Shown here one piece after another: positions 14,653 through 21,836 of a stretch of 64,000 nt of DNA (positions within the stretch are counted from its first letter, which is position 1; the number at the start of each line of letters is the position of its first letter). This DNA comes from Candidatus Heimdallarchaeota archaeon (GTDB lineage Archaea; Asgardarchaeota; Heimdallarchaeia; JABLTI01), in the NCBI GenBank assembly GCA_019058275.1, contig JAHLVW010000099.1, forward strand, positions 16,321 to 80,320, written 5' to 3'. The position numbers and the translations under genes are program-made. The notes beneath the pieces were generated by a model. That model was not told the origin of the DNA. It made no database searches and saw only the letters and a list, made by a program, of their open reading frames with translations.

Positions 14653-14704
14653 AAAACCGGATGGAGGTAAACAAACTCCCATCGTTGTAGAAGAAGGTTT
14701 TAAG
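14653..14704 (-). repeat. cassette-boundary hairpin element, copy 1 (most degenerate tail)
   Basis: AAAACCGGATGGAGGTAAACAAACTCCCATCGTTGTAGAAGAAGGTTTTAAG; stem GATG/CATC is compensatory relative to GACG/CGTC. Confidence 0.8.
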
Positions 14705-14902
14705 TGGGGGGAGAATACTAGAAATTTTCTTTTCTGAAATGTAGGCATTTAGTAATTTATTTTTTATTGTAAATCATAGTAAAAATTGTTCGGAACAGTT
14801 TCTAAACTATCATTAGAGATGTTTTAAAGAAAATAATGAGTATATATTATTCAAGAATTAAATAAAAAGAAGGCAAATTTAAAAAAAACATGAGGAAAAG
14901 AA

Positions 14903-16159
14903 ATGAGAGGTAAAAACTCGATCACTGTTTTGATGATAATATTATTTCTTTCGATAAATAGCTTACTAGTAGCTGGTTATGATAATAATAGAAGTGAAAG
15001 TGCTAAACCAAATAATATAATGGTAACTTACGCTTCTATATTTAGTGTAAAAGATGATTATCTAATGATTTCAGATGATGTTATGATGGGTGGATCTCAA
15101 CCAAGAGATTTTTGGATTTTAGATTATAGCAATCCAAACAAAACAGAAATCATCGGAGGATATCTCCTAAATTCTAGTGGATATTTACTATCAATGAGCA
15201 CTTTTGGTGATTTGTTATTCTTATTGTGCAAGTATGATGACCCCTATTATGCAACAGGTTTTGAAATTGTTAATATAAGTTCAATAGACTCTCCAGAATA
15301 TTTAGGACATTACGTAGCAAACGACTCATATGGATGGTGGCATGATCCTAGATATAATAGTCTAGAATTACTTCGATTCAAAGATAATTACGTTTTTATG
15401 TATACATCGTTAGTAACTTCAGAAACTCAACAAATCAGAATTATTGATTGTCAAAATATGACTAATATAACAGAAGTTAATACAATTGCATCCACAAATA
15501 GGATTTTAGATTTTGATATTAAAGATGATATTATGTATATCAACCAAGTAGAAAGCAAAATGGAGATGATTAATATAAGTGACATAACAAATCCAACCAA
15601 AATTTCTTCTTGGAATTCAACTGGTACCATAAGTATGGATATTTATGAAGATAGACTCTATTTATTCAACTTTGACGAACGAAAATTAGATATTTATAGC
15701 TTAGAAAATGCTACAAATCCAGAATATATCACTACAATAGAAAAGGATGAAAATACCCAATTCTTTGTAACAAATCTAGTATTCACAGATGAATATTGTT
15801 TTGTAATAAGTGAAGATATGGTAGATATTTTAGATATCTCAGATTTAACAATTTTAAATAGCTATAAAGTAGAAGATTATATTTTAGAAGATGAATATGG
15901 GGGCTTTTTCTACGGACAAGTAGGAAATGAAAAATTGTTTGTTGCTAGAGAGTCTAACAAATGGGGTTTAACCTTATTTGTAATAGGTTTTTCAGATATT
16001 AATAATTTAGAAACTTGGATACCATATTGGACACCAACATCTCCAATAGCAATAACTCCAATGATTTATGGAATAATCATTAGCACTTGTTTGTTGACAA
16101 GTATGTTCATTAAGAAAATAGCTCAAAGAAAGGGAAAAACAAAGGAGAGGAAAGAATAA
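14903..16159 (+). CDS. secreted LVIVD-repeat beta-propeller protein, membrane anchored
   Basis: Repeated (I/L)-x-D/N-I-S-x-P motifs (ILDYSNP, IVNISSIDSP, INISDITNP), signal peptide, C-terminal TM and basic tail. Confidence 0.75.
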   Translation: MRGKNSITVLMIILFLSINSLLVAGYDNNRSESAKPNNIMVTYASIFSVKDDYLMISDDVMMGGSQPRDFWILDYSNPNKTEIIGGYLLNSSGYLLSMSTFGDLLFLLCKYDDPYYATGFEIVNISSIDSPEYLGHYVANDSYGWWHDPRYNSLELLRFKDNYVFMYTSLVTSETQQIRIIDCQNMTNITEVNTIASTNRILDFDIKDDIMYINQVESKMEMINISDITNPTKISSWNSTGTISMDIYEDRLYLFNFDERKLDIYSLENATNPEYITTIEKDENTQFFVTNLVFTDEYCFVISEDMVDILDISDLTILNSYKVEDYILEDEYGGFFYGQVGNEKLFVARESNKWGLTLFVIGFSDINNLETWIPYWTPTSPIAITPMIYGIIISTCLLTSMFIKKIAQRKGKTKERKE

Positions 16160-16213
16160 CCACACAATGAATATATCAAAAAATACTTAGCTCAAAACCA
16201 ATAACACAGAATT

Positions 16214-16262
16214 AAACTGGTCGGAGGTAAACCAGTCCACGTCGTGGGAAAAGGAAGTTAAA
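16214..16262 (-). repeat. cassette-boundary hairpin element, copy 2
   Basis: AAACTGGTCGGAGGTAAACCAGTCCACGTCGTGGGAAAAGGAAGTTAAA. Confidence 0.8.
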
Positions 16263-16319
16263 ATGTACAGATTTAAAATTCAGATAATTAAAAAAATAAA
16301 AGAAATATTCTTACTAGAT

Positions 16320-16826
16320 TCATTTAATATCTGAAGCTGATATAATAGCTTGAGTTGGAATATTTCGTAAGCAATGAGGACAAAAACCTTTAGTTTTAAT
16401 CCACTCAAAAAGATGTGTGAAATGTCCAATTGATTCACAAAGACTACATTTTCCAACATCATCTCCAAATGAGATAGGTAACTTACAAACTATACATCTA
16501 AGTTTTCTTTTTCCACAATCTGAACAAAATTCACTATGCATATCGAGAGGATAACCACACCAAAAACAAGTTTGATGTTTTGATTCAGTATAATCTATAT
16601 TTACAAGTTGGGAAGATGAATGAGTAATTAGTGAATCTTTAGTTTTTCTTTTCTTTACAAATAATAGAACAAAAACACCAACTATAGTAAATAATCCAAC
16701 AATAGCAATTATTGGCCAGGTGGATACATTTGGATTTCCTCTATTATAAAAGAAAGCAAAAATACCACCTAAAAGTGTTAGAATCAATCCACCAACAGTT
16801 ACTGTTATTGCTTTATGATTAACCAT
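16320..16826 (-). CDS. two-TM protein with C-terminal zinc ribbon and RING-like domain (putative E3 ligase)
   Basis: CFWC...CSDC, then C-x2-C-x12-C-x2-C-x4-H-x2-H-x3-W-x6-C-x2-C. Confidence 0.75.
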   Translation of the reverse strand: MVNHKAITVTVGGLILTLLGGIFAFFYNRGNPNVSTWPIIAIVGLFTIVGVFVLLFVKKRKTKDSLITHSSSQLVNIDYTESKHQTCFWCGYPLDMHSEFCSDCGKRKLRCIVCKLPISFGDDVGKCSLCESIGHFTHLFEWIKTKGFCPHCLRNIPTQAIISASDIK

Positions 16827-16942
16827 TATTTTCCTTCCTACTTTAATTCAAGCTAATATTCAGTTGATCAATAAAATAAATTTAAACATAACTCTGGAAA
16901 ATTGAATTATAAACTATGAACTCATAATCTATAAGAGAAATC

Positions 16943-19827: not shown

Positions 19828-20787
19828 TTAAATGAGCGTGAGTGCTCTTCTTGAGTTCTCTGTGATAACTTTATAGATGATTTCCTGATCAATTCCTTCC
19901 TTTACACAGTACGGAATAAATGTATCAAAAAATGTAGCATATGGTCTCATATTTTGGTTCTTATTTTCTTCTCTGTTCTCTTTAATCTTAAAAGAACCTG
20001 AATCTTGACCAAATAGTAGCTGACTAATCAAACGCTCTTCTATTATTTTCCTTATAGCTGGAGGATATTTTTCAAAGGACTCTGCACCAGCTATTCCGTC
20101 AAATTCTATCCACATTCCTTTCTTTGCAACTTCAAGTATTAATGAAACATCCATTTTTGCATCTGCATGAACCCAGATAAAATTATCAAAGGGTAAGTTC
20201 TCTTCCTCAAGAATTTTAAAAACTCGTTTTACACATGGTTCATTCAAAACATGGCATTGGATTCGAAGACCAGTTTCTAAACTTGCTTTAATGGCTGCAC
20301 GAAGTAGCTTATCTTGTAAAGGAAAAATTTCTCCTTCATCACCAAGAGCCATCTTAATGAAACCAGGTTTTGTTCCAGTATTATCTATTCCTTCTTTAAA
20401 TTCCTTTATCCAAATGGAAGCAATCTCATCAATTGTTTTTTCCTTAATATCTTTTGGAACACCTTTTCCTCTAACATTAAAACCATCCCATGCACCCGTA
20501 CATGTGATAATATTCAATCCAGATTTTTTAGCACATTGCTTTAAAACATCTAAATCTCGACCAAGTCCAAAAGGAGTTGCTTCTACAATAGTTGAACATC
20601 CCTTATTTTTCACATCAATCAAATATGGTAAAACAAAATCAACGACCTCATCAGTTGTATATGTTTTCTCAACCAAGTTTATACCATTCAAATCCACTAA
20701 AATATGCTCATGCATTAATGTTACACCTAAATCTTCTTCAGAAATAGGTCCTATTACAGTATTAATCATTACAGTCAATTCCCTCAA
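19828..20787 (-). CDS. phosphotriesterase family amidohydrolase
   Basis: TVIGPI..LGVTLMHEH, TP.GLGRD, GFIK, QCH, WVH and GQD. Confidence 0.92.
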   Translation of the reverse strand: MRELTVMINTVIGPISEEDLGVTLMHEHILVDLNGINLVEKTYTTDEVVDFVLPYLIDVKNKGCSTIVEATPFGLGRDLDVLKQCAKKSGLNIITCTGAWDGFNVRGKGVPKDIKEKTIDEIASIWIKEFKEGIDNTGTKPGFIKMALGDEGEIFPLQDKLLRAAIKASLETGLRIQCHVLNEPCVKRVFKILEEENLPFDNFIWVHADAKMDVSLILEVAKKGMWIEFDGIAGAESFEKYPPAIRKIIEERLISQLLFGQDSGSFKIKENREENKNQNMRPYATFFDTFIPYCVKEGIDQEIIYKVITENSRRALTLI

Positions 20788-20889
20788 AATATCTATTTCT
20801 AAAGTGTTTCAGTAATATAAAATTATTCAGACCAATCTTGGATTAATAAATCAATAAAAAAACAGTCGCAAAACCAAAAGCACAGAATT

Positions 20890-20939
20890 AAACCGGACGA
20901 GGGCAAACCAACCCCTGTCGCGGGAAAAGGGGAGTTTAG
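20890..20939 (-). repeat. cassette-boundary hairpin element, copy 5
   Basis: AAACCGGACGAGGGCAAACCAACCCCTGTCGCGGGAAAAGGGGAGTTTAG. Confidence 0.9.
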
Positions 20940-21071
20940 ATGTTTGTATGTTCGATAAAAACTACTATTTTGTTCTTTCACATCAAAATAGAACCCACGA
21001 ATATGTATTCTTCTTTATCTTTAATTAAACAAAATTAGCAAAACAGTTACGACAAGATACTTATTACGAAT

Positions 21072-21416
21072 TTATTGCCAAAATCGAATTGCATCTTTTT
21101 GCAATATTAATAAAAAGTGTTGAGAGAGGTTATATTTCCATTCATCTAGCAAGTCTATTAGCCTAGGTTGAATGAAATTAATAATTGCTGGTTCAATTGC
21201 TAAATAAATAACTTGAATTTTATGTTTTTTCCAGAGAAAGGTGAAATCCTTATCACGAGTAACAAAAACATAATTATTTTATTTCACCATATTCGATAGC
21301 TCACAGTTCTTAATACCAGACCAACCTTCTGTTTGAACAGTAGTACAAAATAAACCATGATCGTCAAAAATTTTTTTGAGTTGTAGTGGAACGTTTTCAT
21401 CTAGTAGAAACTTCAC
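21072..21416 (-). pseudogene. DUF5615 PIN-like toxin with a premature TAA at codon 46 (absent from the ORF track)
   Basis: GTG start overlaps the antitoxin end. Translates as MKFLLDENVP...GWSGIKN...MVK*NNYVFVTRDKDF...FWQ over 115 codons; TAA at 21279-21281. Confidence 0.85.
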
Positions 21417-21648
21417 TTTCTTTAGAACCATAAATAACAACCTCACCTGCAATCATTTCTTTAGCATATGTGATTATCTCTTGAATATCTTCTCGAGTAA
21501 TGGTAGGAAAATTTGCTAATATTTCTTCAAAGCTTTTTCCTTCTTTTAACCAATCAAGAATATCTAACACTAACACTCGAGTACCTTTAATGGTAGGTTG
21601 TCCTCCGCAAATCTCAGGATCGCGGACAATACGTTCAAATTTGCTCAT
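21397..21648 (-). CDS. DUF433 family antitoxin
   Basis: RIVRDPEICGGQPTIKGTRVLV...G.S.EEIL..FP.IT.EDI. Confidence 0.93.
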   Translation of the reverse strand: MSKFERIVRDPEICGGQPTIKGTRVLVLDILDWLKEGKSFEEILANFPTITREDIQEIITYAKEMIAGEVVIYGSKESEVSTR

Positions 21649-21786
21649 ATGAATTCCACTCTAATATACTAATAAGCAACTTGCCTTAAATTAATACCTT
21701 TCTTTTGCATAACAAAATTATTACGAGAGAGCAAAGAATAGGTTTGAACCCCAAGAAACAAAACTCAAAACCATTTTAGTCAAATC

Positions 21787-21836
21787 AAAACCGGACGAGG
21801 GCAAACCAGCCCCCGTCGCGGGAAAAGGGAGTTTAA
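21787..21836 (-). repeat. cassette-boundary hairpin element, copy 6 (best-paired)
   Basis: AAAACCGGACGAGGGCAAACCAGCCCCCGTCGCGGGAAAAGGGAGTTTAA. Confidence 0.9.

Follow-up and report, generated by a model that had tools for sequence, protein, structure and literature searches.

Introduction

The described systems closest to the locus analysed here are the tRNA-site elements of Heimdallarchaeum (PMC8813620), together with Islander-type islands and the tycheposon arrays of Prochlorococcus. Archaeal integrons (Ghaly et al. 2022, PMC9668308) offer a further comparison; an attC site is defined by R''(RYYYAAC)/R'(GTTRRRY) and L''/L' boxes, with short spacers on both sides and two to three extrahelical bases. 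The window, by which we mean the whole stretch of 64,000 nucleotides analysed here from a Candidatus Heimdallarchaeota archaeon (assembly GCA_019058275.1, contig JAHLVW010000099.1), holds hairpin repeats separated by accessory genes. An earlier note on this DNA had likened the hairpins to attC bottom strands and to the ends of IS200/IS605 elements. We consider it probable that repeat copy 6 is instead the true 3' end of a small RNA gene, and that copies 1-5 are truncated spare tails left between swappable gene blocks.

Results

Six co-oriented copies of the repeat

The six copies of the hairpin repeat lie on the same strand, with cores that start at window positions 14654, 16214, 16944, 19622, 20890 and 21788; the number expected from shuffled sequences is 0. 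The repeat unit, at ~95 nt, is longer than the core described in the earlier note:

14612-14706, minus strand: repeat copy 1, a spare tail with a type C stem, the most distal of all (R1 score 78.4 bits; 8/9 stem pairs)
16172-16266, minus strand: repeat copy 2, a decayed spare tail (R1 85.8 bits; 5/9 pairs)
16902-16996, minus strand: repeat copy 3, spare tail and trailer, with a 'type C' stem, GATGG..../ACC... (R1 87.7 bits; 9/9 pairs)
19579-19674, minus strand: repeat copy 4, spare tail and trailer (R1 93.4 bits; 9/9 pairs, two of which are G.U)
20848-20942, minus strand: repeat copy 5, spare tail and trailer, with neither promoter nor 5' part (R1 90.7 bits; 8/9 pairs)
21746-21840, minus strand: repeat copy 6, tail of the predicted gene (its last ~55 nt) and ~40 nt of trailer (R1 97.4 bits; 9/9 pairs)

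Elsewhere in the 4.12-Mb genome the repeat occurs only in one divergent paralogue, on contig C22. To the left of copy 1 no further copy was found with the filters off. A possible hairpin-less remnant lies at 13158-13206, at 15.8 bits only.

On the minus strand copy 6 reads CCG-C-GACGGGGGC-TGGTTT-GCCCTCGTC-CGG, which confirms the stem-loop with one unpaired C that had been described there. The counts of canonical pairs in the 9-bp stem, as listed above, agree with those given previously, including the degenerate state of copy 2. The unpaired base before the outer pair or pairs is conserved as a bulge, while its identity is C, U or A. The compensatory changes that had been named are likewise present, at stem pairs 3 and 9 (C-G vs U-A at each), and the nine pairs of copy 3 include both U-A and A-U replacements. 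The loop had been given as always T(G/T)GTTT; this is true of the six window copies but not of the wider family, in which the terminal loop has 4-9 nt and many sequences, even within one array. Folding of both strands had been proposed as a check. As RNA, the minus strand is more stable than the plus strand by 2.4-9.1 kcal/mol for copies 3-6, copy 1 is equal on both strands and copy 2 adopts a different fold; with DNA parameters the two strands are about equally stable, because G.T adds little in DNA.

A predicted small RNA gene at the end of the array

Copy 6 directly continues the conserved 5' two-thirds of a predicted gene, which the covariance model R2 detects with 152.5 bits at window positions 21775-21909. 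The gene and its surroundings comprise the following features:

21786-21904 (ends approximate), minus strand: full-length ncRNA gene, type A, a unit of ~120 nt
21860-21901, minus strand: 5' hairpin of the ncRNA gene
21840-21858, minus strand: invariant C/U-rich single-stranded 19-mer, followed by a linker
21791-21821, minus strand: terminal stem-loop, which is that of copy 6 and with AACUCCCUUUUCC forms the ncRNA tail
21787-21790, minus strand: U-run ending the ncRNA gene
21923-21935, minus strand: promoter-like element, a purine-rich BRE-like AAAAG followed by the TATA-like TTTTTTAA
21952-21969, unstranded: conserved palindrome TTCCG-N8-CGGAA upstream of the promoter-like element, with arms invariant in 7 aligned type-A loci

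The TATA-like box ends 21 nt upstream of the 5' hairpin in the window's gene and stands ~21-22 nt upstream of it in 23/23 full-length genes. Set against the known spacing of archaeal promoters, this position suggests that the box is the promoter. The palindrome may bind a regulator or may terminate the gene upstream.

Rfam 15 gave no match in the window at gathering score, and at E up to 10 over 21600-22200 it returned only chance-level snoRNA/miRNA matches outside the gene. No antisense site to the 19-mer with up to 4 mismatches was found elsewhere in the genome, and 9-mers complementary to the invariant stretch show no visible enrichment there. No sequence motif common to the ncRNA tail and the 23S tail was seen. 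The unit would represent a lineage-specific and previously undescribed RNA family, whose transcription and exact RNA ends we predict from the sequence.

Conservation and covariation of the full-length gene

An alignment of 7 genomes runs ~80 nt past copy 6 and ends after it has covered the invariant stretch, the hairpin and the TATA-like box. Type B genes, which are paralogous to type A, share its architecture. Full copies number 1-5 per genome in 12/12 genomes of the window's family and were found in 0/71 genomes of six sister families in the same class; the invariant 19-mer is present in Heimdallarchaeota MAG records.

On MAFFT alignments RNAalifold either got the alignment of the variable 5' hairpin wrong or let the 5' arm of that hairpin pair with the invariant stretch; the structure tests were therefore based on single-sequence folds and a model-based alignment. 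Folded singly, the 5' hairpin forms stems of 9-17 pairs from unrelated sequences. Across the aligned full-length genes (n = 23), 91.5% of cells are paired compared with 71.5% in shuffles, and 0/500 shuffles reach the observed value. The main 5' stem has changes on both sides at 10/10 pairs, and its pairing falls to ~51% when the partner is shifted by one column. The terminal hairpin alone (40 units from 12 genomes) has 87.2% of its cells paired vs 85.6% in shuffles and 17 cells changed on both sides, a number that 1/500 shuffles reach; by itself its covariation is modest. The enlarged alignment that the earlier note had put forward as a check of covariation and strand asymmetry gave this modest outcome for the hairpin and a strong asymmetry in the full-length genes, whose 9-bp stem holds ~27 G.U vs 3 non-pairs. 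This excess bears out the claim of a minus-strand-specific structure, as opposed to a dsDNA palindrome. The structure had been assigned to either ssDNA or RNA: a conserved, promoter-bearing, covarying minus-strand unit argues for the RNA, and there is no positive evidence of ssDNA recombination.

Truncation and decay of the spare tails

Copies 1-5 contain only the last ~55 nt of the gene and ~40 nt of trailer. Homology of the spares to the gene has a sharp start at (T)AAACT, whichever the type or the genome (at TAAACT in copy 5). Over the RNA part the units are 68-89% identical to the gene tail, with a 5' arm, GACGGGGGC, that hardly varies.

The tails of 13 full genes have 98% canonical cells, with exactly one G.U each at stem positions 4-7 and 1 A.C in total. 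Among 26 spares, 88% of cells are canonical, and the counts are 38 G.U, 11 A.C and 13 other mismatches. When one inherited G.U per copy is subtracted, ~12 G.U stand against 11 A.C in the spares, a ratio that matches neutral transitions and argues that their strand asymmetry is mostly inherited. The spares lose pairing at about the neutral rate. Conservation of the trailer motif TGATTTTGAG, which in the spares is at least as high as behind the full genes, runs against pure decay. Perfect pairing through double changes at pairs 3 and 9 is found in copy 3 and in some distal spares of relatives; selection on the spare hairpins, instead of descent from a 'type C' gene, could account for it. No full-length 'type C' gene was found.

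Array layout, cassette turnover and recombinase searches

The tails enclose the following genes, as read from Pfam and open reading frames:

14707-21745, unstranded: five gene blocks between the tails, encoding an unknown 418-aa protein (plus strand), a zinc-ribbon membrane protein (minus), an SBP_bac_5 solute-binding protein (plus), a phosphotriesterase-family protein (minus) and a DUF433 protein with an adjoining broken partner (minus)

With sizes of 0.7-2.7 kb, these blocks are far below autonomous integrative elements, and none of them is found at the same place in the arrays of relatives. Synteny across 7 genomes holds for the 5' flank (cupin, NTPase, Zn-ribbon, GNAT, GH31), while each of them has different blocks behind the tail. 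For genomes G000 and G004 the RNA parts are 100% identical and divergence sets in directly after the U-run. Spare-tail arrays stand behind type A genes in G004, G007 and G009 and behind type B genes in G005 and G007. A near-identical strain carries the same array, and no cassette-removing joint was seen (four DNA runs, contigs only). A methyltransferase cassette is common to G005 and G007; all repeat units are homologous, so the crossover cannot be placed from it.

In this 92.8%-complete genome the best match to the integron integrase model TIGR02249 scored 38 bits vs a cut-off of 265, and the Y1 transposase PF01797 had no match. Pfam detected no recombinase or integrase among the block genes of the window, and tblastn/phmmer searches with the genome's six Phage_integrase loci revealed no recombinase in ~60-80 related loci. 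The tail motif was found on 25 metagenome contigs, with no recombinase within reach on any, and on no viral contig. The sole phmmer match on the metagenome contigs is a solute-binding protein, not a recombinase, and the phmmer match in the genome-contig locus of the relative G010 is a eukaryote-type topoisomerase IB. Since no recombinase is encoded nearby, the candidates are a recombinase acting in trans or homologous exchange between tails.

Discussion

How the array may have formed

Direct support for the reading of copy 6 as a gene end and of copies 1-5 as its spare tails comes from the identity of copy 6 with the conserved covarying unit, the truncation point and the family-wide distribution, as well as from the arrays behind both paralogue types and the turnover of cassettes. 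The gene would encode a minus-strand ncRNA of ~120 nt, made up of a 5' hairpin, a long invariant C/U-rich single strand, a terminal stem-loop and a U-run. Each insertion of an accessory block at the 3' end of this gene, presumably site-specific and carried out by a responsible enzyme, would leave one truncated tail, in the way that tandem islands build up at tRNA genes, and the spare tails would now mark where the units of a cassette-like array join. The G.U bias of the minus strand, the compensatory pairs and the bulge would go back to selection that acted on the RNA in full-length genes, both here and in the lineages that donated the cassettes. The spares would inherit these RNA features and then decay.

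The same hairpin, folded as minus-strand ssDNA, might be the substrate of a strand-selective recombinase in the manner of attC, with the ncRNA gene as the primary attachment site. Co-oriented copies that separate unrelated accessory genes, a conserved bulge, the better folding of one strand, several spares fully paired through double changes, a sharp homology boundary and arrays that turn over among close relatives would all suit such a substrate. We regard it as unlikely, however, as the genome is without integron integrase and Y1 transposase and the array loci are without a recombinase, both strands fold about equally with DNA parameters, and the loss of pairing in the spares is roughly neutral. 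The geometry also differs from that of attC: no R''/R' or L''/L' boxes are present, the distance to the stem is 0 nt for the AAC word and 9 nt for the GTT word, and one bulge stands against two to three extrahelical bases. By inspection, AAAAC abuts the stem and GTTT is 9 nt away, with pairing over only 4 bp; the RNA accounts for both words, through its U-run and through the AACU in its single strand. The missing local IntI is by itself not decisive against a CALIN, because CALINs lack IntI locally. Taken together, the absent enzymes, the absent boxes and the neutral decay do not sustain the analogy with attC and IS200/IS605 that had been drawn for this repeat. For IS200/IS605 ends, PF01797 is missing from the genome and the hairpins all face one way and copy a single end. 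CRISPR is excluded by spacers that are whole genes, a tRNA fragment by the empty ARAGORN result and the wrong stem-loop geometry, and a dispersed palindrome of the REP/MITE type by the restriction of the repeat to six copies at this locus and one paralogous gene on C22.

A role at the RNA level could also have kept the spares, as ready-made terminator or 3'-stabiliser hairpins for the minus-strand genes of the cassettes. The T-run that follows the hairpin on the minus strand, the tolerance of G.U and the position of copies 2, 4, 5 and 6, 60-300 nt downstream of minus-strand ORFs, are consistent with this role, whereas no minus-strand gene lies upstream of copies 1 and 3, and in two blocks the genes are on the plus strand. 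Orientation is tied to the ncRNA gene and not to the neighbouring genes, and the spares decay. Archaeal termination does not need a hairpin, which counts further against this role; we think it quite unlikely that it explains the spares, and as a side benefit it is compatible with the origin of the spares as truncated gene tails. A duplex palindromic site of the Xer/dif type, with two inverted arms around a 6-bp crossover spacer, is exceedingly improbable. Arms of 9-12 bp and a 6-nt centre that is nearly constant in this array do resemble one, but family-wide the centre has 4-9 nt of unrelated sequence, even inside one array, the changes in the arms are biased to C>U on one strand, which is unexpected for a duplex site, and the copies do not alternate in orientation, unlike pdif modules.

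The cassette joint falls exactly between the two invariant single-stranded segments of the ncRNA. We think it very unlikely that the ncRNA or the folded gene end helps choose or template the junction, as an RNA-assisted, integrase-less and Heimdall-specific form of gene capture at each paralogue; if it does, the small RNA would be an active participant and not a passive landing pad. For the reading of the spares as tails of an RNA gene, the consequence is that an attractive attC-like analogy is replaced by a testable fact, namely that the repeat forms the tail of a strongly covarying RNA gene which had not been annotated and is present throughout one Heimdall family. The Asgard ncRNA family would be new, with a 19-nt invariant single strand and 1-5 paralogues per genome. 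Its short tails and small array make the locus convenient for crossover mapping and for the hunt for the enzyme, and the results bear on gene acquisition by the closest archaeal relatives of eukaryotes.

Comparison with known systems

RsaE/RoxS of the Firmicutes are seed-bearing regulatory sRNAs in which C/U-rich single-stranded motifs are combined with a terminator hairpin. The predicted Heimdallarchaeota RNA is similar to sRNAs of this type in size, in its 5' hairpin, invariant C/U-rich unpaired stretch and 3' stem-loop with U-run, and in the existence of several paralogues with a common invariant stretch. It differs in its archaeal host and in that the genome showed no target, as judged by extended antisense matches to the 19-mer.

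Integron arrays and CALINs resemble the locus in the alternation of co-oriented, imperfect hairpins with single accessory genes, in a toxin-antitoxin-type block and, for CALINs, in the absence of an integrase at the locus. The sites described here, in contrast, have homology to an RNA gene and a conserved sequence, whereas attC sites are conserved in structure only; moreover, the genome is without IntI and the genes of the array face both ways.

Tandem islands at the 3' ends of tRNA, tmRNA and small-RNA genes differ from this array in their anchor, which is here an undescribed ncRNA and not a tRNA, with blocks of 0.7-2.7 kb. An integrase gene is expected inside each island, and none is found in or near the arrays here (~60-80 loci); the repeat here also holds ~40 nt beyond the RNA hairpin. 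The likeness to these islands is nevertheless extensive: the direct repeats copy the 3' part of a stable RNA gene, which stands intact, and is presumably expressed, at one end of the array, the co-oriented repeats decay with distance from it, and the cargo varies among close relatives.

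Repeat copies and their pairing

A pattern search of the window returned six hairpin copies (c1 to c6), all on the same strand, and the same search on shuffled sequence yielded none. Their core starts and the canonical pairs in the 9-bp stem of the minus strand are as follows.

c1, core start 14654: 8/9
c2, core start 16214: 5/9
c3, core start 16944: 9/9
c4, core start 19622: 9/9
c5, core start 20890: 8/9
c6, core start 21788: 9/9

These counts are identical to those of the earlier note, which had described a strand-specific structure, and the T(G/T)GTTT loop it reported is present in all six copies. 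Copy 6 reads CCG-C-GACGGGGGC-TGGTTT-GCCCTCGTC-CGG on the minus strand. When both strands are folded, the minus strand of c3 to c6 is the more stable by 2.4-9.1 kcal/mol with RNA parameters, but the two strands fold about equally well with DNA parameters. The repeat unit is longer than the core first noted: it measures ~95 nt, as homology reaches ~40 nt past the core on the plus-strand upstream side. Neither a fuzzy search nor R1, a covariance model of this unit, found further copies in the 4.12-Mb, 32% GC genome, except one divergent relative on another contig (C22).

Copy 6 as the tail of a probable ncRNA gene

The best R1 copy in each of seven family genomes has the same first eleven bases as copy 6, and in the alignment homology upstream of these copies persists for ~130 nt and then ends. 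The conserved blocks, in 5' to 3' order on the minus strand, are:

Window 21952-21969, palindrome TTCCG-N8-CGGAA, ~16 nt upstream of the BRE/TATA-like element, arms invariant in seven type A loci
Minus strand, after the palindrome, BRE/TATA-like AAAAG-TTTTTTAA
Minus strand, spacer of about 21 nt
Minus strand, hairpin differing in sequence among genomes and pairing in every one
Minus strand, invariant CCCAUAAACCUCUCUCCCC
Minus strand, short linker, then AACUCCCUUUUCC
Minus strand, stem-loop (the hairpin of the earlier note), then a short U-run

The palindrome may serve as a binding site for a regulator or terminate the gene upstream. In every full-length gene the TATA-like box lies ~21-22 nt upstream of the hairpin, a spacing expected of an archaeal promoter. 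Because the pairing is conserved, a TATA-like box is present and the unit has no match in Rfam, we take window ~21904-21786 (minus strand) to be a so far undescribed ncRNA gene, whose transcription we infer. A paralogue, type B, has the architecture of type A with another 5' hairpin and the loop TTTCTTT; in the window's genome (G000) it is located at C22:147350-147491 (L058:7322-7417 region).

R1 finds the unit in each of the 11 remaining family genomes and in 0/49 genomes outside the family but within the class. R2, a model covering the whole unit at 133 positions, detects one to five full-length copies per genome in 12/12 family genomes and none in 71 genomes across six other families of that class. 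The invariant 19-mer of the gene occurs in records named Candidatus Heimdallarchaeota; a single match in a bacterial MAG is at chance level for the database size. The window's genome carries an archaeal 16S rRNA.

The layout of the RNA (5' hairpin, invariant C/U-rich single strand and terminator-like stem-loop) is an architecture that seed-type regulatory sRNAs have, and the invariant stretch is common to several paralogues. An alternative pairing could join the hairpin's 5' arm (GGAGAG or AGAGG) to the invariant CCUCUCUCC, and it was the one chosen by RNAalifold. No extended antisense target was found in the genome. With low confidence, we consider a regulatory or protein-binding sRNA most likely.

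Covariation and the origin of strand asymmetry

An alignment of 24 rows (23 full-length genes and one spare tail, the truncated form seen in copies 1-5) has 91.5% of cells paired, compared with 71.5% when shuffled, a value reached by none of 500 shuffles. The main 5' stem shows two-sided changes in 10/10 pairs with 96.9% of cells paired, and sliding the partners by one column cuts pairing to about 51%. When sequences are folded singly, the 5' stems have 9-17 pairs and are made of unrelated sequences, among them AGAGGUUUAGG, GGAGAGCAA and UUGAAGAAU. In the 9-bp stem of the tail there are about 27 G.U against 3 non-pairs. Double changes occur there at pair 3 (C-G to U-A), pairs 4 and 5 (G-C to A-U) and pair 9 (C-G to A-U). 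This G.U excess and the double changes are the mark that selection acting on the RNA strand leaves.

Comparison of 13 full-gene tails (alignment A3) with 26 spare copies bears on the source of the pattern. Among the full-gene tails the 5' arm GACGGGGGC is essentially invariant and the 3' arm shows C/U variation only; each tail has exactly one G.U, which moves among stem positions 4, 5, 6 and 7; 98% of cells are canonical, with one A.C in total. No full-length gene tail has a perfectly complementary G/C stem. The unpaired base is conserved as a bulge, outside which at least one G-C pair forms, but its identity is C, U or A; the outer three-pair helix is found in type A only.

The spares have 88% canonical stem cells, with 38 G.U, 11 A.C and 13 other mismatches. 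After removal of one inherited G.U per copy, ~12 new G.U stand against 11 A.C, and at positions invariant in full genes 12 G.U against 6 A.C; neither ratio is significantly off the 1:1 of neutral transitions. The compensatory pairs cited earlier (GATG/CATC, AGGT/ACCT) do exist, but they belong to an alternative stem, type C, and count as one or a few events because this stem is common to the distal spares of four genomes; the hairpin alone gives only modest covariation over 40 units. From the neutral-looking changes in spares versus the selected pattern in full genes, we conclude that the asymmetry is real, and that it is mostly inherited from full genes and not maintained in the spares. The observation of the earlier note is confirmed. 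Its interpretation is supported in part: a strand-specific, single-stranded structure holds, with RNA rather than DNA as the probable form, but a likeness to attC or IS200 does not.

Arrays of spare tails and an insertion hotspot

Spares carry neither promoter nor 5' hairpin nor 19-mer. For type A and type B alike, and in every genome, the part homologous to the gene has a sharp start at (T)AAACU and spans the hairpin and a trailer of ~40 nt with the TGAUUUUGAG motif. A weak R1 match at 13158-13206 on the minus strand (15.8 bits, E 0.8), where AAAATTCCTTTTTCG is directly followed by TATTTTTGAG, may be a spare tail that has lost its hairpin. The five blocks that the spares separate in the window carry:

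418-aa protein (unknown)
Zinc-ribbon membrane protein
SBP_bac_5 protein
Phosphotriesterase-family protein
DUF433 gene and broken partner

Two of the five blocks have plus-strand genes. Behind the antitoxin-like DUF433 gene (21397-21648), the stretch 20950-21400 holds no intact ORF of at least 70 aa.

Like arrays lie behind type A genes in the relatives G004, G007 (8 units) and G009, and behind type B genes in G005 and G007; the type B gene of G000 has no spare tails behind it. On the 5' side, the cupin, NTPase_1, zinc ribbon, GNAT and GH31 genes are syntenic in seven genomes, and the blocks behind the tail are different in each genome. Between G000 and G004 the RNA parts are 100% identical and divergence starts right after the U-run. 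In G008 and G010 spares are undetectable, and the segment right behind the gene is 2.0-kb versus 3.7-kb. Because the segments behind the gene differ, even in these two genomes, the 3' end of the ncRNA gene is a family-wide insertion hotspot.

A near-identical strain (DNA run X3) has the same array. It differs from the window by ~2% over 13279-14683 (through copy 1) and by at most ~0.2% over 14684-24500, a step at copy 1 that resembles the edge of a recombination tract. The variable island (window ~3542-23948) exceeds the array: in G006 (L047) only ~4.4 kb separates the counterparts of window 46-3542 from those of the cupin-to-GH31 block, compared with ~20 kb in the window, and the ncRNA gene of G006 lies within this gap in opposite orientation. 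A methyltransferase gene and a 127-aa ORF (8560-9117, 10379-10762), outside the detectable array in the window, are cassette genes between spare tails in G005, G007 and G009, which suggests an older part of the array with decayed joints. In G000 and G004 an FG-GAP/beta-propeller gene (22141-23835 in the window) separates the ncRNA 5' end from the conserved cupin gene. Because G007, G005 and G003 carry homologues of it as array cassettes, variability extends to the 5' side of the RNA gene too.

Insertion mechanism

A boundary this sharp and shared speaks for a site-specific event. The likeness to IS200/IS605 ends, drawn in the earlier note, is not borne out, as no Y1 transposase was found; nor was an integron integrase. 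Relatives of the genome's six Phage_integrase genes, which lie on contigs C55, C5, C9, C20, C36 and C78, are absent from the window and ~80 related loci, and the tail motif from viral contigs. This absence of a local enzyme argues for an enzyme acting in trans or, alternatively, for blocks being swapped through homologous recombination among the tails of an existing array. G005 and G007 share a methyltransferase cassette.

Two geometries agree with the data. The crossover could fall at (T)AAACU, every incoming element supplying a replacement tail, or just past the U-run, each block then bearing a tail at its far end like the attC of an integron cassette. The G000/G004 break right after the U-run slightly favors the latter. 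A Xer/dif-type duplex site would have its crossover in the loop; it is disfavored because the loop is variable (4-9 nt).

Relation to known systems

The layout is like that of integrons and CALIN elements, to which the proposed attC likeness pointed, but their defining parts were looked for and are lacking. The closest known kind is the tandem island at the 3' end of tRNA, tmRNA or sRNA genes, and elements of Heimdallarchaeum are documented to integrate at tRNA sites (PMC8813620). In contrast to such islands, the anchor here is a new ncRNA, the blocks are very small and integrase-less, and the repeat takes in the trailer. The locus fits best among the RNA-gene-tail island arrays, as a variant whose anchor is a new Asgard ncRNA family.
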